The translations under genes and the position numbers were made by a program. Shown here piece by piece: positions 4,330 to 28,765 of a stretch of DNA of 41,770 nt; the first letter of the stretch is position 1; every line of letters begins with the position of its first letter. Under the pieces are notes generated by a model. The model was given only the letters and a program-made list of their open reading frames with translations, did not search any database and was not told where the DNA came from. Location of the stretch: the sequence record SRR16203515_4633; one strand, 5' to 3'.

Positions 4330-4363
4330 ATTATAAAATTCTTGTATGCAAAAAAATTGCAAT
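4330..4363 (-). promoter_or_regulatory. EPS-box promoter 1 (direct repeat plus -10)
   Basis: Minus strand ATTGCAA-TTTT-TTTGCAT-ACAAGAATTT-TATAAT, 22 nt before ATG 4307. Confidence 0.8.
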
Positions 4364-4367
4364 TACA

Positions 4368-6305
4368 CTAATAAGAACCTTTTTGGAATAAAACAGCTGG
4401 AATTGTTTTTAATAATAAAACTATATCTTTTAGTAAAGATTGCGTTTTTATATACTCTTTATCCATTTGAACTTGTTCTTTAAAAGGAATGCTGCTTCTT
4501 CCAGAAACCTGCCAAATACACGTAATGCCAGGTTTTGCATCTAATCTTTTTTTATCATCCATGTTGTATAACTTAACCTCATCAATTACAGGTGGTCTAG
4601 GACCTACTAAACTCATATTACCTAAGAATACATTTGCTAATTGAGGTAATTCATCAATACTTGTTTTTCTAATAAATTTACCTATTTTAGTAATTCTTGG
4701 ATCATCTTTCATTTTAAAAATCACTCCATCTTTAGATTGGTTTTGATCTTTTAATTTTTCTTTTAACTCTTCTGCATCAACTACCATAGATCTGAATTTA
4801 AACATTTTAAATATCTTTCCATTTAAACCTACTCTATCTTGAACAAAAAATACATCTCCTTTACTAGTAAGTTTTATAATCACAGCTACGACTATAAAAA
4901 GAGGTAAAAAAAGTATCATCAAAATAAATGAAGCAAGTACATCTATTGATCTTTTTAGAAAATTTCTTGAAACAATAGCTAGTTTCCAAATAACTTTTTG
5001 TAGATTTAGTTTCTTTGGTTTATCATAAGTATTAAGATAATTATCAATTAAACTATCATTTTGTAATTGTTTTTTATATCTAAGAACTCTATATATAAAT
5101 AAAGGATTGCCAAGAATATATCTTTTCCACATTCTTTTAGGTTCTTGTATCATTCTATAAACCCACTCAAACCCTGTTTCTCTTAAATACATTGGAGCTC
5201 TTTTAATATTAGAAGAATAAAAATCAAATAAACCTCCAACTCCTATAATTACATTAGAGTTCAATTGATTTTTATATTTTTCAATAAAAATCTCTTGCAT
5301 AGGTGCTCCCATAGCCACAAGCAAGATATCAGCCCCAGTATTATTGATTCTATTAATTAACTCTGTTTGTTCTACTTCATGATTAATATAACCGTGAGCT
5401 GTTCCCACTATTTGTAAGTTTGGATATTTTTCCAATAGTTTTTCTTTTGCTTTTAAAGCTACTCCATCTTTTGCTCCAAGAAGAAATATTTTAAAAGAGT
5501 TTGTTTGACTTAATAAACAAATATGAGGAAGCATATCTGTACCATTTACATTCTCTTTTAGTTTCTGTTTTAGAATATTGCAAGCTATATTTATTCCACT
5601 ACCATCTGGTAGTACTAAATCTGCTTTTGCAAGTGTTTGTTTATATTCATTATTAGAGAATGTTTTGTTTAAACAATCAGCATTAATAAAAGATATAATT
5701 TTTTTATCTTTTTTATAAATACTATTTTTTATAATCTCTAATATTTCATTCATTGCTAGATTATTAAAAGTAATATCAAAGATAGTGATAGTTTTTGAGA
5801 TTTTATTAGTTTTTGAAAAATACAATAAACTAATCATACCCTTACATAAAATAGATAAATCACTAAAAAAAGATTGATTAGATATATACTCTTTATTGCA
5901 TGAGCTGATATTAATATTTGCTATTTTAGAATTAGCTCGGATAAACCATAAACTAAAAATTCCAGGTTTATGATTTACTTTATATTTAATACTTTCATTA
6001 TATTTAACTAAAGCTACCCCAACTAATGATATTTTAGAGATTAAAACAAAATAGTATAAAGGCATACTTTTAATAAAGATATTATTCGTATTAAAAAAAC
6101 TAAGATCTATTTGATTATATTCATCTAAAAAGAATTGTTTTTTAGTATAAATTTCTTTATTAGAAAGAATCTTACGAAAGAAGAAAGTCATATAAACAAA
6201 TATTCCTAAAGTCAATATGAACATAGAAATACTAATCTCAAAAACACGTTTTGTTACAATATAAAAACTATCTAGTTTTATATAATTCAATAATTTTGTT
6301 TGCAT
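4368..6305 (-). CDS. Fusion: degenerate phosphoglycosyl transferase + WecB/TagA/CpsF (GT26) + intact bacterial sugar transferase (initiating PGT)
   Basis: N-terminal KRVFE..ISLVG..KPGIFSLW; middle LPDGSG, NGTD, AMGAPMQE, GVGGLFD, RAP..EW..R..QEPKR; C-terminal KFRSM, DPRIT, SIDELPQL, SLVGPRP, KPGIT. Start 6305 has a GGAG RBS. Confidence 0.9.
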   Translation of the reverse strand: MQTKLLNYIKLDSFYIVTKRVFEISISMFILTLGIFVYMTFFFRKILSNKEIYTKKQFFLDEYNQIDLSFFNTNNIFIKSMPLYYFVLISKISLVGVALVKYNESIKYKVNHKPGIFSLWFIRANSKIANINISSCNKEYISNQSFFSDLSILCKGMISLLYFSKTNKISKTITIFDITFNNLAMNEILEIIKNSIYKKDKKIISFINADCLNKTFSNNEYKQTLAKADLVLPDGSGINIACNILKQKLKENVNGTDMLPHICLLSQTNSFKIFLLGAKDGVALKAKEKLLEKYPNLQIVGTAHGYINHEVEQTELINRINNTGADILLVAMGAPMQEIFIEKYKNQLNSNVIIGVGGLFDFYSSNIKRAPMYLRETGFEWVYRMIQEPKRMWKRYILGNPLFIYRVLRYKKQLQNDSLIDNYLNTYDKPKKLNLQKVIWKLAIVSRNFLKRSIDVLASFILMILFLPLFIVVAVIIKLTSKGDVFFVQDRVGLNGKIFKMFKFRSMVVDAEELKEKLKDQNQSKDGVIFKMKDDPRITKIGKFIRKTSIDELPQLANVFLGNMSLVGPRPPVIDEVKLYNMDDKKRLDAKPGITCIWQVSGRSSIPFKEQVQMDKEYIKTQSLLKDIVLLLKTIPAVLFQKGSY

Positions 6306-7386
6306 GATAACTCCAATCATATTTTTTTACTTCTACTAAACCTTTAGCAACCATTTCTTCTTGTTTACTTTCATCACTTAAAACTTCTTCAATACAATTT
6401 TTTATACTCAAAGGACTATATTCATCAAAGAAAGCAGATACATCTTTTCCTATTTCTAATAGTGAGGAATTAGAGGCACATAAAGTTGGTACTTTCATTG
6501 CCATTGCTTCAATCAAAGGAATTCCAAAACCTTCATAATAAGAAGGGAATATAAATAGTTTTGCATTATAGAAAATAGAAGGTAACTCTTCATTTTCTAA
6601 AAAGCCTAAAATTTTAATTGATTCTTTATCTTTTGACTTTTGTATATGTTCTATAATCACATGGGAGTTTTCTTTTTGATTCCCAACTAATACTAAATCA
6701 TATTCATCTTTTATCTCAAGAGGTAAAGCTTCATAAGCTTTTATTAGATTAAGATGATTCTTTCCTGGGTGCTCTAATCTTGATACATATAAAAAGTATT
6801 TTTTATTTAAAGAGAGTTTTTCTTTTATTTTTTCAAAGTCACCTTTGGGACTATGAAATAATTCTTTATCAACCCCATTGTAATTAACAGTAATTCTTTG
6901 TGAGTCTATATTAAAATGTTTTTCCATATCAAGTTTTGTATTATTACTAACAGCAATTATTTTTTTGATTGGTTTTAAAAAAATTGGAATAATATGTTTT
7001 ATATAAAACATTCTAAAAAAGTCATATTTATTTGATACATTAAATTGAGATAAATCATGAAATGTAGCAATTGTAAAAATAGGATAAAAAGCCATTAGTC
7101 TTCTATTAGCAGCAGGTAAAAACATAAAATCATAATCTTTATTTACATAAAAAGGTAAAAAGAACATATGAAATATCAAATTTAAAATACTGGATTTAAG
7201 AATATTAGGAAATAAGATAAAATGAATATTTTTATGTTTTCTTTTAAAGTTATCCATATCTTTTTCTAATAAAGCAACATAAATCTTATTATCTTGTGCA
7301 AGATTATATATAGTATTTTCAATATAGTTTGAGATGCCTGATTTCCCATCATCAAAGGCTAAGGCACTAACAAATATCTTTTTCAT
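6268..7386 (-). CDS. Glycosyltransferase family 4 (mannosyltransferase-like)
   Basis: TFHDL, SRLEHPGKN, FPSYYEGFGIPLIEAMA (EX7E). Confidence 0.92.
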   Translation of the reverse strand: MKKIFVSALAFDDGKSGISNYIENTIYNLAQDNKIYVALLEKDMDNFKRKHKNIHFILFPNILKSSILNLIFHMFFLPFYVNKDYDFMFLPAANRRLMAFYPIFTIATFHDLSQFNVSNKYDFFRMFYIKHIIPIFLKPIKKIIAVSNNTKLDMEKHFNIDSQRITVNYNGVDKELFHSPKGDFEKIKEKLSLNKKYFLYVSRLEHPGKNHLNLIKAYEALPLEIKDEYDLVLVGNQKENSHVIIEHIQKSKDKESIKILGFLENEELPSIFYNAKLFIFPSYYEGFGIPLIEAMAMKVPTLCASNSSLLEIGKDVSAFFDEYSPLSIKNCIEEVLSDESKQEEMVAKGLVEVKKYDWSYHANKIIELYKTR

Positions 7387-7410
7387 AATAACTCTCCTAT
7401 CTTTTTTATT

Positions 7411-7444
7411 ATCATAAGAAAGTTAGGTGCAAAAACATTGCAAT
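7411..7444 (-). promoter_or_regulatory. EPS-box promoter 2
   Basis: Minus strand ATTGCAA-TGTT-TTTGCAC-CTAACTTTCT-TATGAT, 24 nt before ATG 7386. Confidence 0.8.
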
Positions 7445-7461
7445 TTAATTATAAAAAAGAA

Positions 7462-7977
7462 TTATAGTATTTGTTTTATGATTTTTTTTGAGGCACTTTT
7501 TGAGTTTAAAAGTTGATAATCTATATTTTCATTATTCAACATTGTAAGTATTTTGTTATCTAAATCTATAGCTTCTTCTAGAGTTTCATTTCTTCCATAT
7601 TCTTGATAAACAATATCTTTTCTTTTCAAAAAGAAATTGATATTTTCATACTTATTAAAAACATCTAACAACATTTGTTTAAATAGTTTTTCATCATAAA
7701 TAGATGTTTGTTTATAAAATACATATCCTAAAAGAAAAGAACCATCACATATTGCATAATCAACCTCATTTTCTAAACGCAATAGATTATGGTGTTGTTG
7801 AGCAAAGATATATAAATAATCATCTAAAGTTCTAAAACTTTTTTCATAAGTTAAGTCCTTAGCAAACTCACTTACATATTCAACTTTTTGATTCATTTTT
7901 TTTAATTTAGAAAACAGACTAACAGCAGTAGTAGATTTACCACTTCCCGGACCTGCAAAGATATTAATTACTTTCAT
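7462..7977 (-). CDS. Small P-loop kinase/ATPase (AAA_28/NadR-kinase-like)
   Basis: INIFAGPGSGKST Walker A, EYVSEFAKD, AICDGS, YQEYGRNET; AGGAG RBS. Confidence 0.8.
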   Translation of the reverse strand: MKVINIFAGPGSGKSTTAVSLFSKLKKMNQKVEYVSEFAKDLTYEKSFRTLDDYLYIFAQQHHNLLRLENEVDYAICDGSFLLGYVFYKQTSIYDEKLFKQMLLDVFNKYENINFFLKRKDIVYQEYGRNETLEEAIDLDNKILTMLNNENIDYQLLNSKSASKKIIKQIL

Positions 7978-7986
7978 AACAAACTC

Positions 7987-8865
7987 CTATTGATAATTTC
8001 CATAAGTGGCTTTTTGTTTTAAAATCTTTCTGCTTTGGCCGTTTTTATGACCTTTATAATATGCATATTGATAAATAAATCTTCTTATTATTGCTTTTGT
8101 AAACTCACAATATTCACAAGTTTTTATATGATATTTAAAATCATTGAAAAGCGAAGCTGCATAAGATTTACACATATTATAAATACTAAATTTATTATTA
8201 AAAATAAAAGCATCTGCTTCCCCTTCTACAAATCGTCTATTATATATTTGATCCAAAGTATAATTATGAGAGTGCATAACAAGTGCATTAGCTACATATT
8301 TAACTACAAGATTTTTATTTCTTAGATCATAACCCATTTTTGTATCCTCTGAAGCCCAAGCTTTTGTATAAAAAGGATTTTTATGCCAAACTGTTTTTTT
8401 TATTCCTGATAAAGGTAATGAAAAGTACATCCAAGTAGGAGCATTTGATTTATTTGGAAAAGCTAATTCGTAATCTCTTTTTACCCAAGGTTTTGCTTCG
8501 GGTCTTGCAATTTGTCTAGCAAAAACAGCACTTACCTGCTCTTTTTTTAGTTCATTAATTAGATTTAATAAACAGTGTTTATTTAACATCACTGTGTCTG
8601 AGTTTAAAAATACAATTAGATTTGTTTTTGTTTTTGATACTGCATTATTTAATACGATTCCTGGATGATAATCTTCTGCTTTTACCTCTATTAACTTATG
8701 TTCATAAAAAGCAGCTTGTTTTAGCGTGTCATCACTTGAACCAGAATCTACAATTAATAATTCAAAATCTTTGTATGTTTGAGAAAACAAAGCTTTTAGG
8801 GTTTTTGAAATAATATCCGAATTGTTTTTTGTTCGAACAATCACTGTTGTTTCTATATTTTTCAT
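7987..8865 (-). CDS. Glycosyltransferase family 2
   Basis: IVDSGSSDDT, FLNSD, FARQ, ASED, HSHNY. Confidence 0.9.
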   Translation of the reverse strand: MKNIETTVIVRTKNNSDIISKTLKALFSQTYKDFELLIVDSGSSDDTLKQAAFYEHKLIEVKAEDYHPGIVLNNAVSKTKTNLIVFLNSDTVMLNKHCLLNLINELKKEQVSAVFARQIARPEAKPWVKRDYELAFPNKSNAPTWMYFSLPLSGIKKTVWHKNPFYTKAWASEDTKMGYDLRNKNLVVKYVANALVMHSHNYTLDQIYNRRFVEGEADAFIFNNKFSIYNMCKSYAASLFNDFKYHIKTCEYCEFTKAIIRRFIYQYAYYKGHKNGQSRKILKQKATYGNYQ

Positions 8866-9674
8866 GATTTAGCCTTTACAAGTTCACTCATATGTACAGT
8901 TTCACAAGTAGAAATATATTCCAAAATTCTTTTTACTTGTTTGAAGTTATCACATAAATACATAGTAATAGGATGTATGATTACATTTGATACGAGCCCC
9001 TTAGCTTCTCTATCTTTTAGTTGTTCTAAAACTAGATTTGCCCATGTTTCCACATAATAAGACTCTTTACCAAAATCATCACTCCAGTTGTATCTTTTTT
9101 GCCACTTCTCAATCCATTGAGGAGTTCTCTCCGCATGAATTAAATGTTCATGATCTGGAATAATATTAATAGGAAAATTATAAATTCCTGTTTTATGTAA
9201 AGATGGTTCATTTGAAGCTTTTTTTACTCCATCAGAACAGATTTGTATTCCTGCATCAAAAAGTACTTCTTCTGTATTTTCACCATGCATATACATATGG
9301 TTTCTCCACACTTTTATATCTTTTCCTGTTTTCTCTTTTATAATTTCTATTGTCTTTAATGTATCATTTCGTTGATACCATTTAGGACCATTATAATTTT
9401 TTGTTAGTTTATTCCAAACTCTATGGAAAAACTCATTTTCAAAGGCATCATAGTTGTGTCCTCCTACTTCTATTAAAGGATTAAATACTATCTGTTTTAC
9501 ATCACTCCACTCTTCTTCAAAAGATTTACCAGTGATAAAATAATTCATCTTAATATCGTAAACCTCTAAAAGTCTTAGAAATAATATAGCTGTTTGCATT
9601 TCACTAATATCACTGTGTTGTTGATTTCCCGTATTTAAACTCATATGATGTAAATCACCTGTTAAACAAATCAT
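8862..9674 (-). CDS. Polysaccharide deacetylase (NodB/CE4-like), no signal peptide
   Basis: LTGDLHH motif-1 variant, YFITG, EVGGHNY, WRNH, IIHP. Confidence 0.72.
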   Translation of the reverse strand: MICLTGDLHHMSLNTGNQQHSDISEMQTAILFLRLLEVYDIKMNYFITGKSFEEEWSDVKQIVFNPLIEVGGHNYDAFENEFFHRVWNKLTKNYNGPKWYQRNDTLKTIEIIKEKTGKDIKVWRNHMYMHGENTEEVLFDAGIQICSDGVKKASNEPSLHKTGIYNFPINIIPDHEHLIHAERTPQWIEKWQKRYNWSDDFGKESYYVETWANLVLEQLKDREAKGLVSNVIIHPITMYLCDNFKQVKRILEYISTCETVHMSELVKAKS

Positions 9675-9684
9675 AATTTATCCT

Positions 9685-10872
9685 TTATATCCCAAAATCT
9701 TCTCTAATAAAATTACTATTAACATAATTTTTCCAATAAGTTAAATATTGATTTTTTAAATTTTTATCATTATTATTTGTTTGGAAAAAATCTCTTACAA
9801 TCCCATCAAACTCTTTTCCTTTAATTCCATAAGCAATAAAAGGAAATAAAATAGGCATCATTCCTTTAACTCCAAGCATTTTATATTTTAGGTCTTCTAC
9901 AAAATTAAAGCCTGAAATTTTTGGTGTTTTTTTCACTAAAAATAAAATCTTTTTGATATTACCTTTTAGAGTAGATGTGTCAATTAATGATTGATTTATT
10001 GCTTTTGTAATATATGTTTTAGAGTTTATTTCTACATTATCTAAAGCTAATGATTCACATAAAAAATGTATTTTTGTTAACTCTGCTTTTAAAAACTGAT
10101 GATACTTATTAATATTAAATTTATCATATCTTTCATAATCTGGTTGGAATCTAAACTCCATTGCTTTATCATATAAGGCTTTGAATTTAGGATCAATATT
10201 ATTTAGAGCTTTCATTCTTTTTTGTTTTTCAACATAACTATAGTGATACTTCCCAAGATAAAATAATAAAGCATCTCCATAACCAATAATTGCTTTTATC
10301 CAATGTTTGATTACAGTTTTTTTATCTTTATAAACTAAATTTTCTTTTTCTAAAATCAAATCATTTATAATTAATAAAGTTCCTCTATTTACAATTAGAT
10401 TTCTAATATCCCAAGAAGGAATAGTTTCTACTTCAAAATTAGTATTTTTTGTTAGACAATCACTATTTCCTGCAATTACTTTATGACCATATTTCATATC
10501 ATATGTAATAACTAAAGGGTCAATATTTAAAAGCTTAGAAGCACTAATTACTGTAAATTCAACAAAAATCCCTAAAGATTCAGTATGCTTATCAAAGATG
10601 CTTTTACACATGTCAGATAATAATACTTCTTCATCTTTTGTAATATTTTTTGAAACAACTATAAAGTCAAAGTTATTATGTGGGTACTCTCTATTTTCAA
10701 CTTTTACAACACCACCCTCACCTCTACCATAACCACCAATTAGAATCACAACTTCATATAAATCTTCTGATATTAAAGTTTTAACATCTAATGAAATATC
10801 ATCTAAAACTTTTCCTAATTTCTCATCAAATTCTTTGCTTCCCTTTACGGTAAGTCTCCCATAACTAGACAT
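9685..10872 (-). CDS. Pol-beta-superfamily nucleotidyltransferase-like protein with helical C-terminal domain
   Basis: ILIGGYGRGEGG...PHNNFDFIVV (hG[GS]..R followed by NxD in place of DxD). Start moved to ATG 10872 (AGGAG 6 nt upstream). Confidence 0.65.
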   Translation of the reverse strand: MSSYGRLTVKGSKEFDEKLGKVLDDISLDVKTLISEDLYEVVILIGGYGRGEGGVVKVENREYPHNNFDFIVVSKNITKDEEVLLSDMCKSIFDKHTESLGIFVEFTVISASKLLNIDPLVITYDMKYGHKVIAGNSDCLTKNTNFEVETIPSWDIRNLIVNRGTLLIINDLILEKENLVYKDKKTVIKHWIKAIIGYGDALLFYLGKYHYSYVEKQKRMKALNNIDPKFKALYDKAMEFRFQPDYERYDKFNINKYHQFLKAELTKIHFLCESLALDNVEINSKTYITKAINQSLIDTSTLKGNIKKILFLVKKTPKISGFNFVEDLKYKMLGVKGMMPILFPFIAYGIKGKEFDGIVRDFFQTNNNDKNLKNQYLTYWKNYVNSNFIREDFGI

Positions 10873-12031
10873 GTTCAACTCCTAATTTATTTTGGAATGT
10901 TTCTATTAATAAACTTGTATGAGCAGCGCTATCATGTTCATAAATACTAGTTTTTAATACATTAAAACATATTCTTTGGTGTAGCTTTTTATCTTCAATT
11001 AATAAGTTGATTTTCTCTTGTAAATCTTTTATATCATTAGGAGTAACAAGTAATCCATTAACATCATGTTTTAACCATTGTGATACTCCTCCAACTGCTG
11101 TGGCAATTACAGGTAAACCAACTTTTTGAGCTTCAATTCCAACTAAATTAAAAGTTTCAGGAGCTCTACTTGGTACAACTAAACAATAAGCTCTTTTATA
11201 ATATTCCATTAACTCTTCATGGTTTAATTTCCCAACAAAAGTAACTCTATGTTCAATTTTTAGCTCTTTACAATAATGTTTGAAATACTCTTCTTGTTTC
11301 CCCTCACCTACAACTACTAGATTATATTCTTCATCTATTTTATGCATTGATTTAAGTAAGGCATCTAATCCTTTTCCATTAATTAGCTGACCAACAAAAA
11401 GTAAAGTTTTATTAGATGTGAAATTAGTATTTGTTGAATATTCAAACTTCTTAGCTGCATATAATGGATTTACAGTAATACTTTCATTATCAAATTCATG
11501 TAATTCTAAATGCTCTTTCATATATTCAGAAGCCACAATAAAGTGATTTAACTCTTTATTTACTTTTTGTAGTTTTTCTAGTTTTCCAAGAGTTTGAATA
11601 GAAAAACCTAAAGCTGAGTTTGATCTATTTACAAAACCTAAACATCCATAACAACCTAAACCTAACTTTTTAGTACAAGTCTTTTTCCCAAGTGTTGTAT
11701 ATTTGTGTTCTCTTAAACAAAATAGTTTATGATCATGAAAAAATCTAACAGTAGGTATTTTAGTTTTTATAATCTCTTTATAGATACTTTCATCATCTAA
11801 CTGATGAATATAAATCACATCTGGTTGAATATTTATTATTTGATCATATACATTAAGTATTGGAAAAGCTTCATCAAACATATCAAGAAATTCATTGTGT
11901 ATATCTTCATTTGCGTCATATAATAAAGAAGATTGAATATCGAAGTTTTTCATCTCATCAGCAGTATTATAAATATACTGTTCAGCTCCACCTTGAAGAG
12001 TAGCTTTTTGATTTATCCATAGAACTCTCAT
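10865..12031 (-). CDS. Glycosyltransferase family 4
   Basis: GGAEQY, HDHKLFC, VGQLINGKG, PSRAPETFNLVGIEA. Confidence 0.92.
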   Translation of the reverse strand: MRVLWINQKATLQGGAEQYIYNTADEMKNFDIQSSLLYDANEDIHNEFLDMFDEAFPILNVYDQIINIQPDVIYIHQLDDESIYKEIIKTKIPTVRFFHDHKLFCLREHKYTTLGKKTCTKKLGLGCYGCLGFVNRSNSALGFSIQTLGKLEKLQKVNKELNHFIVASEYMKEHLELHEFDNESITVNPLYAAKKFEYSTNTNFTSNKTLLFVGQLINGKGLDALLKSMHKIDEEYNLVVVGEGKQEEYFKHYCKELKIEHRVTFVGKLNHEELMEYYKRAYCLVVPSRAPETFNLVGIEAQKVGLPVIATAVGGVSQWLKHDVNGLLVTPNDIKDLQEKINLLIEDKKLHQRICFNVLKTSIYEHDSAAHTSLLIETFQNKLGVEHV

Positions 12032-12055
12032 AACTTGCTCCTAATCTTTTTTCTT

Positions 12056-12089
12056 AGTTTAACTACTAAAGTTGCAGAAAGTTTGCAAT
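12056..12089 (-). promoter_or_regulatory. EPS-box promoter 3
   Basis: Minus strand ATTGCAA-ACTT-TCTGCAA-CTTTAGTAGT-TAAACT, 24 nt before ATG 12031. Confidence 0.78.
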
Positions 12090-12104
12090 ATGAGAGTCTA
12101 TAAA

Positions 12105-15661: not shown

Positions 15662-15673
15662 TTTGCACCTCAA

Positions 15674-17068: not shown

Positions 17069-17093
17069 AATACACCTCCGTTTTATAATAGAG

Positions 17094-17127
17094 AGTTTCG
17101 CGTACTTGTATGCAAATAAAATGCAAT
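17094..17127 (-). promoter_or_regulatory. EPS-box promoter 4
   Basis: Minus strand ATTGCAT-TTTA-TTTGCAT-ACAAGTACGC-GAAACT, 25 nt before ATG 17068. Confidence 0.75.
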
Positions 17128-18831: not shown

Positions 18832-19239
18832 TTATAACTCCACAATAAGTTTGATACTATTCTTTTTGAATATTACATCTTTACAAAAGTGTTTCATCAA
18901 AATAATACCTCTTCCAGAATCTTTTAGTAAATCTTCTGGTTTTATATGTTCACTATCTTTTCTTTTATTTTCAATAGCAACACCCTCACCTTCATCTTTC
19001 ACTTCAATACTAATATGTGACTTATCTATACAATAAGATAAAGTTACATTTTTATCTTTATTTTCTTTGTTTCCATGAATTATTGCATTAGCTAATGCTT
19101 CTTGAATTACCAATGATAAAGTATTTTTTTTATCTTGATTTTTAATTAGTTTAAATAGTTTTGATTCTAACCAATCAAATACCTTTGGAATATTTGATAA
19201 TTCACTAGAAAAAATAAAGTTTGAAGAAGATGAATTCAT
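18832..19239 (-). CDS. RsbW/SpoIIAB-like Ser kinase/anti-sigma factor
   Basis: QEALANAIIHGN, DEGEG, SGRGIILM. Confidence 0.92.
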   Translation of the reverse strand: MNSSSSNFIFSSELSNIPKVFDWLESKLFKLIKNQDKKNTLSLVIQEALANAIIHGNKENKDKNVTLSYCIDKSHISIEVKDEGEGVAIENKRKDSEHIKPEDLLKDSGRGIILMKHFCKDVIFKKNSIKLIVEL

Positions 19240-19254
19240 AAAAATTCCTTAATA

Positions 19255-19581
19255 TTATCTGCTTACATCTACGAATGTATTTAATTTTGTTACATCAAAT
19301 ATATTAAATACAATCTCATTAACATTTATGATTTTTAAACTTTTATCATGCTCTGAAAGTTTTTTGTAAAGATTAATAATCATTGTTAAACCTGAACTAT
19401 CAATAAAATTTATATTATAAAAATCTAATACTTGTTCGTCTTTTTTTGAGCTACCATTTATTTCAGATATAACTGGAGTCAATTGTTCTTTTATTAGTTT
19501 TAAATTTGTTGTATCAATTCTGTCACAATCAATAAAAGAAACAACAGATTTATTTTTTTCATTTTTTATATTTATAAACAT
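19255..19581 (-). CDS. STAS-domain anti-sigma-factor antagonist
   Basis: LDFYNINFIDSSGL, IFDVTKL; AAGGAG RBS. Confidence 0.9.
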   Translation of the reverse strand: MFINIKNEKNKSVVSFIDCDRIDTTNLKLIKEQLTPVISEINGSSKKDEQVLDFYNINFIDSSGLTMIINLYKKLSEHDKSLKIINVNEIVFNIFDVTKLNTFVDVSR

Positions 19582-19618: not shown

Positions 19619-21130
19619 TTAAATAGTTTTTATTTTATTTATTAATAACTTTTTTATTTCAGCTCTCTCTGTCTCCTTCATAAAGATATAATACAATATT
19701 GTAAAACAACTAACACATAATAATCCATATATAAGTAAGTCTAAAATGCTATTAATACTACTCGAAGTAAATATATAAAATACACCATAAACAATACAAC
19801 CTAAAATTATAGTTTTAAATACCACTTCTTTTAAATAATAAAAAACTGATATTTTTGAAAACTTACAGGATACTGGTATATTATAAATAATTGCAAAGAA
19901 AACATTAGGAATCAAAGTACCTAAAGCAACACCCATTATTGAATACTTTTGAACTAAATAAATACTTAGTACTAAATTCATAACAGCCTCTAATATAGCT
20001 ACTACGGTAAGCTCTTTATGTCTTTCACACATTAATAAAACTTGAACAGAACTACTTCTAAAAAACACTAAAACATACATTGAAACTAAAAGTATCATTG
20101 CAGTATAAACAACTTCAATACTTTCAATTTCTAACCAAAAATACAATAACTTATCAATATATAAAAAAGTAGGAATAAAAAGTAATGTGGATATAAAACC
20201 TACAATTTTATTAGTATGAAGTAAGGTATTTTGTAAATCATCATGTTTATTCGTAACAAATAAAGAAGCAGATAAGGGTCCTAAAATATCATGTATTTGA
20301 GTTGAGAACTGTCTAAAAAGCTCAGATACTCTAGATACAATTTGATAAACCCCAACTAAAGCTACAGTTGAGAACATAGAAATTACTAATTGATCTGTTC
20401 TAAATATAATAACATTTGAGAACATTACAATATATGCAAATATTGAAAAACTCATAAGTTCATAAACTCTTTTTTTCTTAAAAAAAGAGAATGATATTTT
20501 TAGACTAGGAATATTTTTGAATACATAAATAGCCATAAAAACATTTGTTAAAAACTGAATAACAATTGCAATAGCAGCCATATAAATAAGTGAATATCCA
20601 TAAGAGATACAAAGGCTTAATAAAACAAAATTTAATACTAAAAATACTATATCAATATTATTTCTTAATGTGATTTTTTGTAAACCTCTTAATACTTCTT
20701 TGAAAAAACCAAAAGGAAAAAGAAGTGCAGTTCCTATTCCAAAAATATAAAATGTAGTTTTATAATATTCTATTGTTTCACTAGATGAAAATACAAATAT
20801 CTTCTCTAAATTCTGAGCTAATAAAACAGTTACAATAAGAATTACAAAAGACAAAAGAATATATGAAAAGAAAATTGTTGATATAGTTTCATTAAAACTT
20901 TTCCAATTATTCTTTGCTTGGGATTCACTAGTTGCTTTTTGAACTGCTGTTCCAAAACCAAAATCAAGTAGTAAGGAATATCCAAACACACTCCATAAAA
21001 GTGCCCAGAATCCATACTCTTCATTGGAAATTCCAAGAAACATTATTCTAACTAACATTAAAGATAATATTATTTTTAAAATAAGTAATATATAGTTTGA
21101 TATGGTACTGTTTAATATTATATTTTTCAT
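19619..21130 (-). CDS. wzx: Oligosaccharide flippase (Wzx/MOP family)
   Basis: Many TM helices; EEYGFW..LLDFGFG; RTDQLVI..VGVYQ; context. Confidence 0.85.
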   Translation of the reverse strand: MKNIILNSTISNYILLILKIILSLMLVRIMFLGISNEEYGFWALLWSVFGYSLLLDFGFGTAVQKATSESQAKNNWKSFNETISTIFFSYILLSFVILIVTVLLAQNLEKIFVFSSSETIEYYKTTFYIFGIGTALLFPFGFFKEVLRGLQKITLRNNIDIVFLVLNFVLLSLCISYGYSLIYMAAIAIVIQFLTNVFMAIYVFKNIPSLKISFSFFKKKRVYELMSFSIFAYIVMFSNVIIFRTDQLVISMFSTVALVGVYQIVSRVSELFRQFSTQIHDILGPLSASLFVTNKHDDLQNTLLHTNKIVGFISTLLFIPTFLYIDKLLYFWLEIESIEVVYTAMILLVSMYVLVFFRSSSVQVLLMCERHKELTVVAILEAVMNLVLSIYLVQKYSIMGVALGTLIPNVFFAIIYNIPVSCKFSKISVFYYLKEVVFKTIILGCIVYGVFYIFTSSSINSILDLLIYGLLCVSCFTILYYIFMKETERAEIKKLLINKIKTI

Positions 21131-21131
21131 T

Positions 21132-22274
21132 TTATACTCTTGTAATTTTTAATAAAACATCTTCTACTTGTTTTTTTACAATATTAATATCAAATTTATT
21201 TTTCACTTTTTGATAGGCATTTGTTCTATATTTTTCTAATAAATCCCAACTATTATGTAAAAGTAATATTTTGAATGTCAAATCCTCAACACATGAGGGA
21301 GTAAAAAGTAAACCATTTTTAGAATCATCAATAATTTCAGCAGGACCAAAATCATCAGGAGCAATACTTACAACTCCATAGTTCATTGCTTCAATTAAAA
21401 CTAAACCAAAAGGCTCTCTCATTCTAGTTGGCATTAATAAAACATGATTGTTTTTATAGGCTTCTTCTAAATTATCAACTTTCCCATGGAAAATCACATG
21501 ATTGCTCAAACATAAAACCTCAACCATTTTTTTACATTTATCAATATATTCTTTATCCCCATCACCATAAATATGAAATTCAAAATCATATATTTTTCTA
21601 TCACGTAAGTTTGATAACGCTTTTAATGCCAAATCTAAACCCTTACTATAATCTAAACGACCACAAAACATATATTGCATTAGCTCTTTGGATTTCGAAG
21701 ACTTTTCTTTTGTGATTTTTGTTCCATTTGGTATTTGGAATATATTTTGAGTTCCATAAAACTCTTTCATTTCAGGAATCATCCATTTTGAAACAGAAAT
21801 TATTGGATCTATTTTTATATCAATAGCTTTAAACCCAGGAAGAAGTTGTTTTACTTCTCTTTTGAGTTTAGACATAAAGTTATTGGCTAAAAATCCTTTC
21901 ATCCAAAAATCCCCAATTTCAAATACTTTTTTGATTTTTTCTTTTTCAACTGCCCAAATAGGAGACAGGGATACTAATCGCAAAGACCAAATATAAACTA
22001 AATCTGGTTTTATTTTTTTTATTACATCTTGAGTTGTTTCATAGTTAAACTCTTCAACTACATTTTTATCAAAATAAGAAGGATCTTTATAATCTATATA
22101 TTTTAATTTTCTATATACTTTTCCAAGGGAAATGCTTTCTTCTTTATAATTTCCAGTAAGTACATAAACTTCATGCCCTGCTTTTTCTAAAAATTGAACA
22201 GTGTCATAACAAGCTAACTCATAACCACCAATATAATAAGGGGGATAATAATTACTTAAAATTAAAATTTTCAT
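21132..22274 (-). CDS. Glycosyltransferase family 4
   Basis: SNYYPP..GGYE, GRLDYSKG, REPFGLVLIEAM. Confidence 0.92.
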   Translation of the reverse strand: MKILILSNYYPPYYIGGYELACYDTVQFLEKAGHEVYVLTGNYKEESISLGKVYRKLKYIDYKDPSYFDKNVVEEFNYETTQDVIKKIKPDLVYIWSLRLVSLSPIWAVEKEKIKKVFEIGDFWMKGFLANNFMSKLKREVKQLLPGFKAIDIKIDPIISVSKWMIPEMKEFYGTQNIFQIPNGTKITKEKSSKSKELMQYMFCGRLDYSKGLDLALKALSNLRDRKIYDFEFHIYGDGDKEYIDKCKKMVEVLCLSNHVIFHGKVDNLEEAYKNNHVLLMPTRMREPFGLVLIEAMNYGVVSIAPDDFGPAEIIDDSKNGLLFTPSCVEDLTFKILLLHNSWDLLEKYRTNAYQKVKNKFDINIVKKQVEDVLLKITRV

Positions 22275-22285
22275 GACTTATCCTT

Positions 22286-22663
22286 TTATCTTAATAAATG
22301 GAATTGAAATAAATCTATTCCTATTAATGATTTTATATAGTATAAAGCCAAAAAGATTGCAGTTAGCACTGAAGCTATTACTAAAAACACTAAAAATGTA
22401 GAAAATATAATAAATATAATATGTGAAAGTTTTGTAAGTGAAAATTTTCTATCCATTTTTCTTTTTTCACTACCTAAATAAATTGTGATATAAAACATTT
22501 TGAAAAACCAAAAATCAAAATTTAGATTAACTATCTTTTTTGTTGCTTTTGGTAATGCACAAGATATTAATTTTTTTGTTTCCCTTTTTTGTTCATTTGT
22601 CATACTATCTTTAATTAAGGGATTCATTTTTTCAAAGATAACATCTTCATTTAGATTTTTCAT
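22286..22663 (-). CDS. Small membrane protein of unknown function
   Basis: 125 aa, overlaps the upstream stop, one long hydrophobic segment ending LYYIKSLIGIDLF. Confidence 0.7.
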   Translation of the reverse strand: MKNLNEDVIFEKMNPLIKDSMTNEQKRETKKLISCALPKATKKIVNLNFDFWFFKMFYITIYLGSEKRKMDRKFSLTKLSHIIFIIFSTFLVFLVIASVLTAIFLALYYIKSLIGIDLFQFHLLR

Positions 22664-23972
22664 TTTTTTTACCTTCTTTAATTAATCTTGATACAACCAA
22701 AATAACAGCAAAAATAAACATCATTTGATAGAAGTTATTAGTCTGTTTTAAAACCCATTCCATTGTTGACTGTAAATACATACTTGTTAAACAGCCAATA
22801 AAAGCCATTGGAATATACTTGTACTTCTTATATTTGCCTTTTCCTAAAGCAATATAATTTCTTATATTCTTAATATAAAAGAACATAAGAAATGATATAA
22901 ATACCAATAAATTAGCTCAGCCAGTCTCTGCTGCTACTAATAAATAAACTGTCTCAACGATTCCACCTTTTTCGTCATCATCTTTTCTTACAATATGCTC
23001 ACCATAGTTATATGGGGGATTTATTTTTAAACCAAAGTTATTTAAACCTACTCCAAAAACCTTATCATTTGCCATATTTTGGGCAGCTTCAGCTAAAACA
23101 ACTCTTACATTTAATGACTCTTCTGGAGCTGTTTGAATTCTCTCCATAATTGTGTCACTTGCCTTATATAAAATTCCTGTAGCACATACAAAAAATAGAA
23201 CTGTTACTCCTAGTTTTTTAGCAGTAAATTTTGTTTTATAAGAAAGTAAAAATATTAAAAAAATAGAAATAGAAAATACTGCCATTCCACCTCTTGATAG
23301 AGTTGAAATAATATCAACACTAGCAGCACCAAATGCTGTAATCCAAACATACAGTTTTGCTTTTTTTGCATTTAGGGCATAAGATAAAAAAATACTTCCA
23401 TATACAATCATATACATTACTAAGGAGTTTTGATGAGGGAAAGGCCCTTTTACTTGAAACATTCCTTCTAAGTATTTCTGTTTTAAAACCATTAGTGTTA
23501 TGTAAGCCACAATTATCAACATATATTTAATAAACTCTTCTATATCTTCAAAAGATCTAATTAAATTATAAACAACAAAAAAGTAAAAATACATTCTTAC
23601 CATTTTCCATAATTCAAAAAATGAATAGATATATACATCACTATTAATTATTGAAATTAGTGAGAAAGTAAAATATGTGAAATAAATATAACTAGCTGGA
23701 GGCATTTTTATTGGGAATTTATCTTTTCTAGAATAAATCACAAAAAATAGAATAATAGCTGTAATATCAACAAGCCCTATTTCAAAACCTCTTGATGTTC
23801 CTCTATATGTTTCCATTGAGAAAAAATTAATGTCTTCTGTACTTGCTGTAAAAAACAGTAATAAAAACCAAAACGATTTTTCAATCCAAACGAATCTTTT
23901 GGCAAATATTACTGCTATTGGAACTCCAATAAATAGTACAAAAAAGAAAATTATATATTTTAACTCAAACAT
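22647..23972 (-). pseudogene. O-antigen ligase/Wzy-like polymerase interrupted by an in-frame TGA at 22919-22917
   Basis: ORFs 22917..23972 and 22647..22907 are in the same frame, 9 nt apart (AAETG*ANLLVF). Motifs PHQNSL, TLSRGG, FGVGLNNF. Read-through length is 441 aa. Confidence 0.82.
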
Positions 23973-23987
23973 AATCTTGCCTTTACT

Positions 23988-24518
23988 TTATATTACTTCT
24001 CTGTATTTCACTACTTTTGATGGGATACCCACAACAACTGCACATCTTGGTACATCTTTTAATACAACACTATTAGCTCCCACAATAGAATAATCATCTA
24101 AAGTGATTTTTCCTAAAATTTTTGCACCTGTACAGATCTCTACAAAATCCCCAATTGTTGGGTTTGTATCTTCATACTCTTCCCCTCTATCACCTAATGT
24201 AACTCCTTGGTGAATAATACAATTTCTACCAATTGTCGCAAACTCTCCAATAACTACTCCACTACTATGAGGTAAATATAAACCTCCATCAATTTTTGCT
24301 TTTCTAGCAATGTCACAACCAAATAAAACAAAGTTTAAAAAAGAAACTATTTTTCCTAATATTCCTAATCTATATTTACTTAATACACTAGAAATTCTAA
24401 ATAAAATCACAGGATATAATCGAGGATTCAACACATGAACTAAATCTTTTGTAGATACTGTCTCTTTATTTTTATAAATTGCAATATCCTCTTTTATTAA
24501 TTGAAGTAAAGTTTTCAT
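23988..24518 (-). CDS. Serine-acetyltransferase-like (LbH) polysaccharide O-acetyltransferase
   Basis: LPHSSGVVIGE, HQGVTLG, VGANSVVLKDVP..VVGIP. Confidence 0.88.
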   Translation of the reverse strand: MKTLLQLIKEDIAIYKNKETVSTKDLVHVLNPRLYPVILFRISSVLSKYRLGILGKIVSFLNFVLFGCDIARKAKIDGGLYLPHSSGVVIGEFATIGRNCIIHQGVTLGDRGEEYEDTNPTIGDFVEICTGAKILGKITLDDYSIVGANSVVLKDVPRCAVVVGIPSKVVKYREVI

Positions 24519-24519
24519 C

Positions 24520-25629
24520 TTAATCTCCTTTTAGTAATTGATTAGTGATGTATGCACTTTGAATAGTTTCTAAACTAGGCATAATTGTTTGAAGAATATT
24601 ATTCCAATCCCCTAAAGTCGAAGTAGGAATAAACACAATATCAAAAGGTTTAACTCTAAAGTCTTTTGATTTCCCTTCTAAAATATCTTCTAAATTTGCA
24701 ATATATACAACTGGATTTGTTAAAGTTCCTCTGATAATGGCAACTTTTTGTAAATTTGCATTTACTTTAAATCCTTTTGCATAAGTTACAACTTGGCTTA
24801 AAGTCATGTTTTCTTTAAAACCATAATGACCAGGAAGATTAACTTCCCCTAAAATATAAACCTCTGTATTTAAAGCAGATGGAATATAGATATAATCTTT
24901 ATCTTTTAATGGAATATTATGTAAAGGATTACCTTTTCTTACTAACTCAATAAAATTTACAGGTAATACTCTATTTCCTCTTCTAATAAAAGCGTGTTCT
25001 AGATCTGCTAACTCAATAGTATTGTCTTCAAAGATCCCAATTGAAAGACCTTGAGCAATTGCAATTGAATCAATTGCTTTTGCATTATTTGTAATTTGAT
25101 AAGTTCCAGGAAGTGAGACTTTTCCTAAAATTGTAAAACTTTTACTTCTAAATTCAACAGGAATAATAGATACAATTGGATTCACTAAATATCTTTTTAG
25201 TTTATTCGCAATTTTTCTCATTGCTTCATTAATTGTAAGACCAGCAACTTTCACATCTCCTATTAATTGAAAAGTTAAAGTTCCATCAACTTTAACAACT
25301 GAACCTTTTACATTTAATTCAGGTTCCTCGTAAACAAAGATATTAAACATATCACCAGAGCCAATAACGTACTCATTTTTCTCCTTTATATGTAATTCAA
25401 GAAGTTCTTTTTTTATTTCATTTGAATGTAATCCATTATGAATAATTTCAAAATCTTTTTCTAATACTTGTAATGCTGGATCTGTATTTCTACTTTTATA
25501 TGCTTTTGGTGTACTCTTTTTCGCATATAATGTTGTGTCTTCAGGTTTAGGTGAAGCTACACATCCGATTAAAAAAACCGCAAGTAATAAGATTAATAAG
25601 TAATTAGATACTTTTATTATCGATAACAT
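24520..25629 (-). CDS. wza: Outer-membrane polysaccharide export lipoprotein (OPX)
   Basis: Lipobox LIGC, YVIGSGD..VYEEPEL..DGTLTFQLIG, SLBB repeats, C-terminal amphipathic WNNILQTIMP. Confidence 0.9.
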   Translation of the reverse strand: MLSIIKVSNYLLILLLAVFLIGCVASPKPEDTTLYAKKSTPKAYKSRNTDPALQVLEKDFEIIHNGLHSNEIKKELLELHIKEKNEYVIGSGDMFNIFVYEEPELNVKGSVVKVDGTLTFQLIGDVKVAGLTINEAMRKIANKLKRYLVNPIVSIIPVEFRSKSFTILGKVSLPGTYQITNNAKAIDSIAIAQGLSIGIFEDNTIELADLEHAFIRRGNRVLPVNFIELVRKGNPLHNIPLKDKDYIYIPSALNTEVYILGEVNLPGHYGFKENMTLSQVVTYAKGFKVNANLQKVAIIRGTLTNPVVYIANLEDILEGKSKDFRVKPFDIVFIPTSTLGDWNNILQTIMPSLETIQSAYITNQLLKGD

Positions 25630-27571
25630 TTAGAACTCCTTTTACATGAGATATACCTAGTGAGTTTATTTCTTCTACAATTGGATCAATTGTTTTTCTA
25701 GAAGACTCATTACATTTAAAAACTAATAAAACTAAATCGGCTAAAGGAGCAAAGTTTTTAAAGAAATACGTATTTACTCCAAAAGCAAGTACTTCAAATA
25801 AAACTAGGTCATATTCATTTGTTTTTAAGTTCTCAAATAACTTTTCTGAAATATTTGTATTTGCTAAGTAGTAATCATTTATTTCACTATCTTGAATATA
25901 TAGTTTGTGAACATACTCATTAACAACATTTACATTATCAAAGTTAAGATTTTCAATATCACTACAATTAATTATAGAACCCTCTATTTCAGGAGTTATT
26001 TCACTAACTGTTTCAATATAAAGTACTTTTTGTTTTGTAGTTGAACAAAAGTATGTTAATACTTCTGAAATATGAGTTTTTCCCGTATTTGCAACATCAC
26101 TACCTAGTAATACAATTTTTTTATTTTTCATTGTTTTCATAAAAGAAGTAATAAAGTCCATTGTATTTTCTTTGATAATATTGTTATCTTTTGTATTAAA
26201 AAACTCGCCAATAAGTTTGATATTAAATCTTCTTTCAATATCAAAAGCTCCTTTTATTCTAAAATCAAAGAATAATTTCAGAATAAAAAAGCCTGTAAAA
26301 ACTAAAGCTGATAAAAAACCTGTTCCTAAAATCATTGCTTTTTTGAAGTTTGATTCTGGATATTTTGGTGGTTTAGCTCTTTCTAAAAATTTGAAATCTT
26401 CTTGAGAAGACTCTAGTGCAATTTTTAATTCATTTTGTCTTTTTGTAACTAAGTCTAATAATGAATTTTTCTCATCTATTTTTTTTGCAATAACTGAATA
26501 TTTTTTTTCTAAAATATTTAACTCTTTAATTTCATTTTCTATATTGTTTTGTTGTTCAAATAACTCTTTAATTCTGTTAGTTGATGAAATTACACCAATT
26601 TTACTTTGAGATAATTCAATAATTAAAGCTGTAAATAAAGGATTATTCCCATAAGTAATCTCATCTGGAATACTTTTTTTATTTTTTCTGCTTGAGTATT
26701 GAGATTTCATTTTTGATATCTCTTTTTTCAAAGTTTTAATTTTTGGATTATGTTTTGTATATTTTTGATTCATTGCATCAAGTTCTTTTTCTTTATTTGC
26801 AATTGCTTTTAAGTCAGCTGATCTAACTGAATATTCAAGTTGAACTTCTTTTGGAATTTGTTTTAATTTAATATTGATTTGTTTGATTTTTGTTTGATAC
26901 TCATTTTTTAAAACTTTTGTATCAATAAGGTTTAAAGCAACTTCATTTAGTTGTTCATACTTATAATCTTTTTGAACTTTGATTGATAAGATTTTATTCT
27001 CTTTATTAAATCTTTCTTTTGTAGATAATAAAACTTCAATCTCTTTAATTAGTGATTCTTTTTGTTTACCATAATAAACTAGAACCTCTCTTGTTGCAGC
27101 ATTTTGTACTTTATAAAAGTTTTTTAGAAAAATCTCTGCAAGTACATTTGCACCTTTTACTGATAATTCTCTATTACCATTAGTAAAAAGAATCTCAATA
27201 ATGTCTGATCTTTTTCTTCTTTTAATCTCATACGATGAATATATTTTTTCAACTGTTGTATCAAGATTTAATGCTTTAATAGCTTCATTTAAATTTTCTC
27301 TTGTTCTTATAGTTTGTAAAGCAGTGTCATAGTTAAAGTTTTGGAATTTATAAGGTACATCTTTTGGCATAGATATTTTTTTGTCATATCTAATTATTTT
27401 TGCAACTGCTTTATAAGAAACAGTTGTAAACTTATTTGCAAAAAATGTAGCAACTAAGATTCCAATAATTGCAGCAATAAGAATTGATGGTGCTTTATAT
27501 AATAATTCTTTTAAGAAATATAAAGGATTAACAATAAAAAGATCATCAGTTTTAAAAGCTTTATTTTTCAT
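25604..27571 (-). CDS. Polysaccharide co-polymerase (Wzc/GumC-like) with degenerate kinase domain
   Basis: Two TM segments flanking a coiled coil, YTKHNPKI, LERAKPPKYP, then GSDVANTGKT and GVLN; no Tyr-rich tail. Confidence 0.85.
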   Translation of the reverse strand: MKNKAFKTDDLFIVNPLYFLKELLYKAPSILIAAIIGILVATFFANKFTTVSYKAVAKIIRYDKKISMPKDVPYKFQNFNYDTALQTIRTRENLNEAIKALNLDTTVEKIYSSYEIKRRKRSDIIEILFTNGNRELSVKGANVLAEIFLKNFYKVQNAATREVLVYYGKQKESLIKEIEVLLSTKERFNKENKILSIKVQKDYKYEQLNEVALNLIDTKVLKNEYQTKIKQINIKLKQIPKEVQLEYSVRSADLKAIANKEKELDAMNQKYTKHNPKIKTLKKEISKMKSQYSSRKNKKSIPDEITYGNNPLFTALIIELSQSKIGVISSTNRIKELFEQQNNIENEIKELNILEKKYSVIAKKIDEKNSLLDLVTKRQNELKIALESSQEDFKFLERAKPPKYPESNFKKAMILGTGFLSALVFTGFFILKLFFDFRIKGAFDIERRFNIKLIGEFFNTKDNNIIKENTMDFITSFMKTMKNKKIVLLGSDVANTGKTHISEVLTYFCSTTKQKVLYIETVSEITPEIEGSIINCSDIENLNFDNVNVVNEYVHKLYIQDSEINDYYLANTNISEKLFENLKTNEYDLVLFEVLAFGVNTYFFKNFAPLADLVLLVFKCNESSRKTIDPIVEEINSLGISHVKGVLNVIDNKSI

Positions 27572-28706
27572 CTCTTATCTCTTTTTCCATAACTTTTCTA
27601 ATATCAGTAATTGAATTAATATTCTCATCTATGCTTGTACTTGAAAACATAAGTGAATATGAGTCTTTATGATCTGGGTGAAAACCATGCATTCCAGGAA
27701 TTGCTTGTAATCCAAAATAACTTGGGTTAATTAAAGTTCCAGGATTAGTTAAAAAGAATAGTTCTCCAAATCTTCTATCTTCAAAGAAAACTCTCATTTC
27801 TTTTAACTCATCATCATCTACAATTTTTCCACTACTTTGAAATGATAAAAGATCTTCAATTGTCTCTCTAGCTTCATCATTCATAAACCAAAATCTAGCC
27901 ATTGTTGAATCATACATAGCAACATAATCTTTTCCATAAACTAAACCAGTGTTCTCAATAACTTTGATTAAATCTACACTTCCTTTAGTATCACACATTC
28001 CATGGTCACTAAAGATATGTAAAGAAACTTCATCATATTTATCATTTGCATAATCATAAACATTTGATATTTGATCTTCTAACCATTTGATTTTCTCAAC
28101 TGTTTTTTCATGTTCTGTCCCGTATGTATGCATAACCCCATCAAGTGTTGGTAAGTAAAGATATGAAAATTCAATATCACCTTCATCAATCTTTTCTTTT
28201 AAAGCATTGATATTGTAAGTTTCACTTTTTCTCCAATTTGAGCAGTGGTAAGGAATATCATTTTCTACACACCAATCAAAGATAGTGTCAGTTTTTAAAA
28301 TCCCATTTGGAACAAAATAATCATGTTTTTCTAAGTAATCAAAATATGGAAGATGTGCAAATGGCACAGAATAAATCTCAAAATAACCTGTATAACCATT
28401 GATAAATTTCATAGCTCTACTTAAATAGTGTCTAGGTCTAAATCTATCAAATATTCTTTTTGGTAAAAAAGACAGATACTTACAAAATTTAAAAGGTGAG
28501 TTTTTAGGATCATAATAAAAACTAGACCAGTGTGTATGTTCATCAGGATATCTTCCAGTTAAAATAGAAGGATCAGCACCTGAAGAAAAACCAAATGTAG
28601 TTTTTAATTTTTTTCTTGTATCAATAGCTTTATTATTAAAACCATGCTTTTTATAAACTTCCCATCCAAACCCATCTATGAAGACAAATAGTGATAACTT
28701 TTTCAT
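27561..28706 (-). CDS. Alkaline-phosphatase-superfamily protein (NPP/phosphodiesterase-like), no signal peptide
   Basis: FIDGFG, FSSGADPSILTG, LDGVMH, SDHG, GMHG. Start moved to 28706 (AAGGA RBS). Confidence 0.85.
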   Translation of the reverse strand: MKKLSLFVFIDGFGWEVYKKHGFNNKAIDTRKKLKTTFGFSSGADPSILTGRYPDEHTHWSSFYYDPKNSPFKFCKYLSFLPKRIFDRFRPRHYLSRAMKFINGYTGYFEIYSVPFAHLPYFDYLEKHDYFVPNGILKTDTIFDWCVENDIPYHCSNWRKSETYNINALKEKIDEGDIEFSYLYLPTLDGVMHTYGTEHEKTVEKIKWLEDQISNVYDYANDKYDEVSLHIFSDHGMCDTKGSVDLIKVIENTGLVYGKDYVAMYDSTMARFWFMNDEARETIEDLLSFQSSGKIVDDDELKEMRVFFEDRRFGELFFLTNPGTLINPSYFGLQAIPGMHGFHPDHKDSYSLMFSSTSIDENINSITDIRKVMEKEIRDEK

Positions 28707-28731
28707 AACCAGTTCCTTAATCATTTTTAGA

Positions 28732-28765
28732 AGATTAACAACTCTATATGCAAAAAGATTGCAAG
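28732..28765 (-). promoter_or_regulatory. EPS-box promoter 5 (head of locus)
   Basis: Minus strand CTTGCAA-TCTT-TTTGCAT-ATAGAGTTGT-TAATCT (with extended TGn), 25 nt before ATG 28706. Confidence 0.8.

Follow-up and report, generated by a model that had tools for sequence, protein, structure and literature searches.

Five operons of an apparent exopolysaccharide (EPS) island in sequence record SRR16203515_4633 share a promoter element that is, with good confidence, real, conserved and apparently undescribed, with an OmpR-family response regulator as its well-supported predicted reader. The window, by which we mean the whole stretch of 41,770 nucleotides (nt) analysed, carries the gene of this regulator at 1-637 on the minus strand; the elements lie on the same strand, between 4330 and 28765. 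Each consists of two YTGCAW half-sites in direct repeat, called the box below, and a -10 hexamer at a fixed distance from it. Judged from these sequences and their distribution, the elements are very probably activator-dependent sigma70 promoters read by the OmpR-family regulator, as parts of a mobile module for the biofilm matrix.

Five promoters of one architecture

The initial annotation had described five minus-strand elements of 34 base pairs (bp), each with its own hexamer and each heading an operon. All five are present, and every one precedes a run of co-oriented genes:

Promoter 1, 4330-4363, minus strand: box 4361-4347; -10 TATAAT at 4335-4330; predicted +1 at about 4323. Heads the operon STAS1-LbH-HK-RR/HK-OmpR (HK, kinase; RR, response regulator); element kept in genomes G165, G166, G167, G168 and G176.
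Promoter 2, 7411-7444, minus strand: box 7442-7428; -10 TATGAT. Heads a GT4 gene and a WecG/priming-transferase fusion; kept in genus g21, G176, G466, G673 and G923.
Promoter 3, 12056-12089, minus strand: box 12087-12073; -10 TAAACT. Heads GT4, hypothetical, deacetylase, GT2 and AAA_28 genes; kept in g21, G466 and G673.
Promoter 4, 17094-17127, minus strand: box 17125-17111; -10 GAAACT; predicted +1 at about 17087. Heads ManC (ATG at 17068), a nucleotidyltransferase and a double GT4; kept in g21, G176, G466 and G673.
Promoter 5, 28732-28765, minus strand: box 28763-28749; -10 TAATCT. Heads a phosphodiesterase-family gene (ATG at 28706), followed by wzc, wza, an acetyltransferase gene, wzy, GT4, wzx, STAS2, RsbW and RsbU; in g21, G176 and several metagenome loci the element likewise precedes this first gene.

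The pattern TTGCAWNNNNTYTGCA has 5 matches in the window, against 0.06 ± 0.28 expected, and none of 100 shuffles reaches 5. From hexamer to ATG there are 22, 24, 24, 25 and 25 nt, as first described. Exact TGCA-N7-TGCA occurs at seven places in the window, the five intergenic elements and two intragenic ones; no further intergenic copy with one mismatch and an A..T hexamer at the same offset was found there. In G001, the nearest complete genome, the strict pattern matches nine times: at the same five elements, and at four coding positions that have no hexamer. A scan for consensus promoters gave no excess over shuffles (104 versus 117; 102 versus 103).

In genus g21 all five promoters are conserved, although the proteins are only 37-77% identical. 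Gene order is changed in families f4 and f7, with part of the genes divergent, and there too the new operon heads carry the box. Extra pattern matches in G165:C17 and G166:C6 were dropped, being antisense within a gene. Among the pieces listed for RNA run X2, one contig of one study spans 13558-17087; position 17087 is the +1 of promoter 4 under the sigma70 model, whereas a sigma54 model would place it at about 17100. Contigs cannot show transcription starts, and this one was not used as evidence.

Shape of the site

We collected 63 sites from 22 stretches by requiring TGCA-N7-TGCA and, 30-75 nt downstream, a start codon with a ribosome-site-like word; the -10 was left unused. At an offset of 11 nt after the box, A occupies hexamer position 2 in 60 of the 63 sites and T occupies position 6 in 62. 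The hexamer BAnnnT fits 53 of 63 sites at this offset, and 0-10 at other offsets from 7 to 15. Over the 60 sites with A..T, the flanks match a direct repeat (L1 0.17-0.57) better than a dyad (L1 0.70-1.03). The direct repeat YTGCAW is favoured because TGCA is preceded by Y in either half, with no G in the mirror position. One site, in G964, has four half-sites in 11-bp phase. Of the 7-mer repeat originally proposed, the TGCA core stands; its outer T does not, as it differs among lineages, and the refined core reads Y-TGCA-W-N4-T-Y-TGCA-W.

Here, as in OmpR/PhoB-type sites, half-sites repeat directly with a period of 10-11 bp, occupy the -35 region and keep a fixed distance to a sigma70 -10. 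Pho boxes stand about 10 nt before the -10, and the pho-box geometry seen by the initial annotation is borne out: an 11-bp, two-unit direct repeat with a fixed sigma70 -10, the half-site sequence being new. E. coli PhoB is described as binding head-to-tail on two 11-nt direct repeat units and contacting sigma70 (PMC4415409). The box has the same repeat layout, but its half-site is YTGCAW, not CTGTCAT, and its targets are matrix, not phosphate, genes. Membership in the Pho regulon proper fails on this half-site and on the regulator's TIGR02154 score (80 bits, cut-off 296).

The regulator as predicted reader

Proteins with 70-100% identity to the regulator at 1-637 were counted as orthologues, the next best protein reaching 47%. 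Of 184 Arcobacteraceae genomes, the same 7 hold both the orthologue and the EPS marker gene of the island, which by itself shows co-inheritance only; the wzy gene of the island is present in 2 of 401 genomes sampled across the phylum. Elsewhere, the orthologue was found in 2/171 genomes of family f4, 1/251 of f7, 4/22 of f8 and 0/30 of f5. Named homologues belong to Arcobacter, Nitrosophilus, Hydrogenimonas, Sulfurovum and Sulfurimonas.

In none of the four orthologue-bearing f8 genomes was the EPS marker found. A pattern written down before any f8 site had been seen gave three matches in G251, all within 4 kb of the regulator, and three in G522, two of them within 9 kb; the same pattern gave no match in G247, a genome without the orthologue. 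A refined pattern matches the 4 orthologue carriers and 0/18 others in f8; in Arcobacteraceae a refined pattern has 3-5 matches in 7/7 carriers and a single match in 11/177 others, 10 of these coding and the eleventh being that of G145. EPS-type and f8 cassettes have in common two kinases and the regulator, and the DNA-binding domain is in the regulator alone. Its predicted recognition helix, HTISSH(V/I)RDIRK, is the same in 6/6 locus-linked proteins (59-81% overall identity) and in 0/6 nearest paralogues; 96 of 104 database homologues keep it. No PDB match to the regulator was found at E 1e-25. The boxes remain in loci that have no RsbU/RsbW module and a rearranged set of genes, and on this ground the partner switch was rejected as the origin of the specificity.

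The proposal that the OmpR-family gene at 1-637 encodes the reader is thus supported as likely, because the box follows the orthologue into four families and into loci sharing no EPS genes.

Matrix genes beyond the island

The five promoters had been taken to define a dedicated EPS regulon, which proved too narrow: the box also heads lipoprotein/DUF4842, type I secretion, Fap-like, PAS-GGDEF and pel genes. Together, box and regulator, which recur in other marine and deep-sea relatives, look like a biofilm-matrix master switch rather than an EPS-dedicated one. A further box lies far from the island in G001, G174 and G166; in G001 and G166 it heads a lipoprotein gene and a second gene, which in G001 is DUF4842/DUF4114. 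Judged by eye from the N-termini, G673 has a similar lipoprotein-type pair within its f4 EPS locus. A TolC/ABC/HlyD (type I secretion) operon is headed by a box in G165 and G167, and a PAP2 gene in three metagenome loci.

In the f8 carriers, the neighbours of the kinase-kinase-regulator cassette are N/Q-rich repeat proteins, a C39 peptidase and a FapF homologue (E 5e-37), and in G251 also a PAS-GGDEF gene confirmed by Pfam; f8 boxes precede these genes. The FapF pore, C39 peptidase and repeat subunits belong to one operon, as in a Fap system. The operon lies at L234:3313-12916 in G251 and is also seen in G522, G964 and G956; its repeat proteins, of up to 1279 amino acids (aa), are rich in N/Q/S/A/G. 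They have no Pfam or PDB match, and are putative amyloid subunits. FapF was not found in G001, G466, G222, G247 and G965.

In G964, a single distant match to the refined pattern lies about 140 nt before a pel operon. This operon (L296:3-7683) encodes PelD GGDEF, a DUF3492 glycosyltransferase, PelG and GH114.

For Sulfurovum indicum, the cluster IMZ28_RS00160-RS00275, likened here to the window island by gene types, is among the most strongly induced on elemental sulfur versus nitrate, most of its genes being listed as 7-38-fold up (PMC10045233, Table S2).

Proposed mechanism and feedback

We propose that the kinase and the REC-kinase hybrid encoded beside the regulator form a relay, in this presumed order, that would phosphorylate the OmpR-family protein. 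The regulator dimer would bind head-to-tail on the two YTGCAW half-sites, one helical turn apart at about -38 to -24. The box would stand in for a -35, and the regulator would recruit sigma70 polymerase to the TAnAAT -10, 11 nt downstream. A single phosphorylation signal could switch on all five island operons. Regulator, hybrid kinase and box would travel as a mobile module in free-living Campylobacterota and control the matrix system that a given genome has, be it Wzy EPS, Fap-like amyloid, Pel, type I adhesin export or a diguanylate cyclase.

The regulator gene was also suggested to lie in the operon of promoter 1 and to feed back on it. It can be reached from promoter 1 through overlapping genes, bar one 41-nt gap, and no terminator-like site was found on the minus strand from that promoter to the regulator. 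Positive feedback is plausible on this ground and varies beyond it: a box stands directly before the kinase-regulator operon in G251 and G956, and none was seen there in G522 and G964. A partial feedback over a basal promoter is likelier, because the autoregulatory box is variable and the response regulator of the S. indicum cluster rises only 2.1-fold. The bistable EPS expression that was also suggested is unsupported.

Weighing the reading

Several points weigh against an OmpR-family activator as the reader. Many of the 63 sites are orthologous and hence not independent, 3 are off-register or reversed reads, and the TGCA of the half-site is itself palindromic. The search for orthologues in Arcobacteraceae scored at most 16 candidates per genome. 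G222, without the orthologue, has three scattered matches to the loose pattern, and G145 has a good divergent box pair before EPS genes, on a 5.4-kb contig, with no orthologue found in its bin (86% complete, 7% contaminated). The refined patterns, in f8 and in Arcobacteraceae alike, had been tuned on sites of the same genomes. Finally, the published lists for S. indicum show the response regulator that closes the cluster as 2.1-fold up, against 8.4-8.7-fold for the preceding genes, and the phosphodiesterase and ligase genes as up about 2-fold; RS00270 does not appear in them (PMC10045233).

A different role for the island's own proteins is conceivable: the OmpR-family protein might bind and repress, which a site over the -35 would permit, or specificity might come from another island or partner-switch protein. 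The RsbU/RsbW/STAS module might have such an output; that of V. fischeri SypA is described as unknown (PMC3610818). We nevertheless find this unlikely, as spacing fixed to the base across four families suits contact with the polymerase, and boxes are present where RsbU, RsbW, STAS and LbH are missing from the stretch examined.

A Fur-family dyad binder, Zur-like, or some other host-wide regulator could instead read the boxes as a repressor over the -35. The Arcobacteraceae palindrome TGCAACT-N-AGTTGCA, present before znuA in G001 and G173, does have the same TGCA-N7-TGCA skeleton. The C at position 6 or the G at position 10 of the dyad is, however, found in 0/60 boxes; the znuA sites are placed some 20 nt ahead of the start codon and not at a fixed distance from a -10; and genomes with the dyad and without the orthologue have no box clusters. 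We consider such a reader very improbable, though some cross-talk could persist under the main model.

The palindrome, which we take to be a Zur site, was noted at L250:1532, L251:1532, L051 and L058, before znuA and near TonB-receptor-like genes of several Arcobacteraceae. At L112:1533 in G001, a related dyad, TGCAAGT-A-ACTTGCA, precedes a bacterial globin gene.

Relation to sigma54 promoters

The box also resembles a sigma54 -24/-12 promoter. The consensus is given as TTGGCA / TTGCAT (PMC11997794), and the box likewise has GC pairs at a spacing of 11 bp, its second half being the same as the -12 element. It differs in its first half, with TG for GG, in the sigma70 -10 fixed downstream of it, and in its hosts, most of which have no RpoN. 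The elements could be sigma54 promoters, one change away from TGGCA-N6-TTGCA, with RpoN or an RpoN-like protein that escaped detection as their reader and the hexamers incidental. The spacing is the same, and 15 of 16 pattern positions are compatible with the box. In homologous EPS loci outside Campylobacterota, TGGCA-N6-TTGCW stands before STAS, phosphodiesterase and nucleotidyltransferase genes (L172, L178/L183, L190, L038, L035), and a sigma54 activator is encoded in the outgroup loci L178, L035 and L145.

The genomes argue otherwise. In searches run on G001 and its relatives, RpoN was not found in G001 (complete), in two carrier genera (0/11 and 0/5), in G466 and G673, or in the four f8 genomes; 67 of 184 Arcobacteraceae genomes have it. 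None of 5 genomes has a PF00158 match of activator strength (best 33.6 bits, versus 219-226 for real ones). The GG at -25/-24 is missing, with TG in 5/5 window sites; the 63-site set, chosen on TGCA, is uninformative on this point. The sigma70 -10 is fixed at offset 11 in boxes, and A..T occurs there in 0/9 sigma54-type sites; G923 possesses RpoN and yet uses box and -10. RpoN is excluded as the present reader, and the wider sigma54 reading is scarcely credible.

Sigma54 promoters as ancestors of the box are another matter, possible though doubtful. The regulator would then couple a near-identical sequence to sigma70: lineages without RpoN would have captured horizontally acquired, formerly sigma54-driven matrix operons (EPS, Fap) through one base change and a new -10. 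The sigma54 site of three outgroup loci stops 42-45 nt short of the STAS start codon, the window box 39 nt short of it, and the median of 60 boxes is 42; either promoter type would sit at about such a distance from a start codon. In an unrooted phosphodiesterase tree of 45 rows, the box-bearing loci form one clade (support 98/90), and a neighbouring group, weakly supported (93/88), mixes sigma54-type and TTGACA-type loci.

Other facts speak against this descent. No one-mismatch (GG) box with a strict -10 was found in 16 Campylobacterota stretches. Relatives that we take to be Cloacimonadota-like use TTGACA promoters, and G923, with RpoN, still uses the box. RpoN is absent, at the cut-off, from 22/22 f8 genomes, so its absence from the f8 carriers is not specific.

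Upstream of the sigma54 promoters of L035, L145 and L178 there are TGCA-N3-TGCA repeats, probably enhancers of the local activator; they resemble the LuxO site. A homologous EPS locus at L151:9770-10010 has a different repeat, TCAGA/CTGACA, in a divergent promoter region; by this repeat, homologous islands have been taken over by different regulators.

Organisation of the island

By its genes, the window holds an Arcobacteraceae Wzx/Wzy polysaccharide island with a syp-like partner switch, its named relatives being Poseidonibacter and other Arcobacteraceae. The island covers 1-28706 on the minus strand; G001 carries the same island, with 94-100% protein identity and the same five sites. Its main parts are:

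1-637, minus strand: response regulator of the OmpR/PhoB family (REC + Trans_reg_C), truncated at the window end and 215 aa long in G001; phospho-acceptor D51.
634-1665, minus strand: REC-HATPase hybrid kinase, adjoining the regulator in every locus seen.
1662-3071, minus strand: HisKA-HATPase kinase; sensor domain not detected.
3113-3964 and 3918-4307, minus strand: LbH protein and STAS protein, respectively.
4368-17068, minus strand: glycosyltransferase, deacetylase and nucleotide-sugar genes behind promoters 2-4.
17578-19581, minus strand: partner-switch module of REC-SpoIIE (RsbU-like), RsbW-like kinase and STAS2.
19619-28706, minus strand: Wzx/Wzy-type export and polymerisation genes behind promoter 5; wzy is 22647-23972.

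In the stretches examined from f4, f7 and f8, no partner-switch module was found. The wzy gene has an in-frame TGA at 22919-22917 (minus strand), where G001, G165, G174 and G176 have TGG; the strain may not polymerise EPS, or the base may be an assembly error. In the bin of G176, the phosphodiesterase-family gene (L030:4758-5865) is broken by a frameshift.

Two small plus-strand genes, 17245-17577 and 28823-29134, oppose the island and have no Pfam match; for the second, G522 encodes a 35% homologue some 10 kb away from the regulator gene. As box readers both were rejected, having no domain and being absent from the g21 loci. An orphan winged-helix protein (34161-34571, minus strand), with Trans_reg_C and without a receiver, is encoded 5 kb outside the island. 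In G001, the stretch just beyond the window start (L010:5397-18776) encodes, directly after the regulator, a 954-aa protein with a FecR domain, a TPR protein that matches the Slam type weakly and a protein of 2991 aa whose N-terminus is similar; no box was seen ahead of these genes in L010.

Comparison with known systems

The nearest studied case in the phylum is PceP of Sulfurospirillum, described as an OmpR-family protein whose regulon is local and comprises several operons, with direct repeats over the -35 region and with positive autoregulation (PMC7755780). PceP binds CTATW-N17-CTATW and controls organohalide respiration (PMC7755780); the window repeats are 11 bp apart and their targets are matrix genes.

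The EPS locus itself recalls syp, in which SypG is a sigma54 activator. The syp locus of Vibrio fischeri is reported to include the gene of a transcription activator for itself, along with a kinase/phosphatase partner switch that contains REC and a STAS protein (PMC3610818). By gene types only, the window is alike in having STAS, serine kinase and PP2C as a partner switch within a Wzy EPS locus. Unlike syp, it has no sigma54 activator in the locus, an OmpR/sigma70 circuit in a host without RpoN, and RsbW and RsbU as separate genes.

With the Pseudomonas fap genes (RpoN/BrfA), for which a -24/-12 RpoN promoter has been mapped at fapA of P. fluorescens (PMC9207406), the f8 operon shares the FapF homologue, the C39 peptidase and the N/Q/S/A/G-rich repeat proteins. 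It differs in its promoter, a TGCA box with a -10 in a family that lacks RpoN, and in its large repeat protein, which has no PDB sequence match. Within mainly open-access full text, we found no account of the regulator or the motif, nor of a matrix regulator in free-living Campylobacterota.

Implications

Free-living Campylobacterota dominate vent, seep and coastal biofilms. Our analysis offers for them a regulator, its predicted binding site and a predicted regulon in four families, cultured genera included. The activation mechanism is classical; the regulon is wider than was first held, its predicted extent covering three matrix chemistries (Wzy EPS, Fap-like amyloid and Pel), adhesin export and a diguanylate cyclase. 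Fap-like systems are extended beyond Beta-, Gamma- as well as Deltaproteobacteria, the only classes given for Fap in the available text of a 2013 survey (PMC3792158). Descent from sigma54 promoters, if true, would be a case of a promoter changing its sigma class in the course of gene transfer. For Sulfurovum, attachment to elemental sulfur becomes testable by one deletion.

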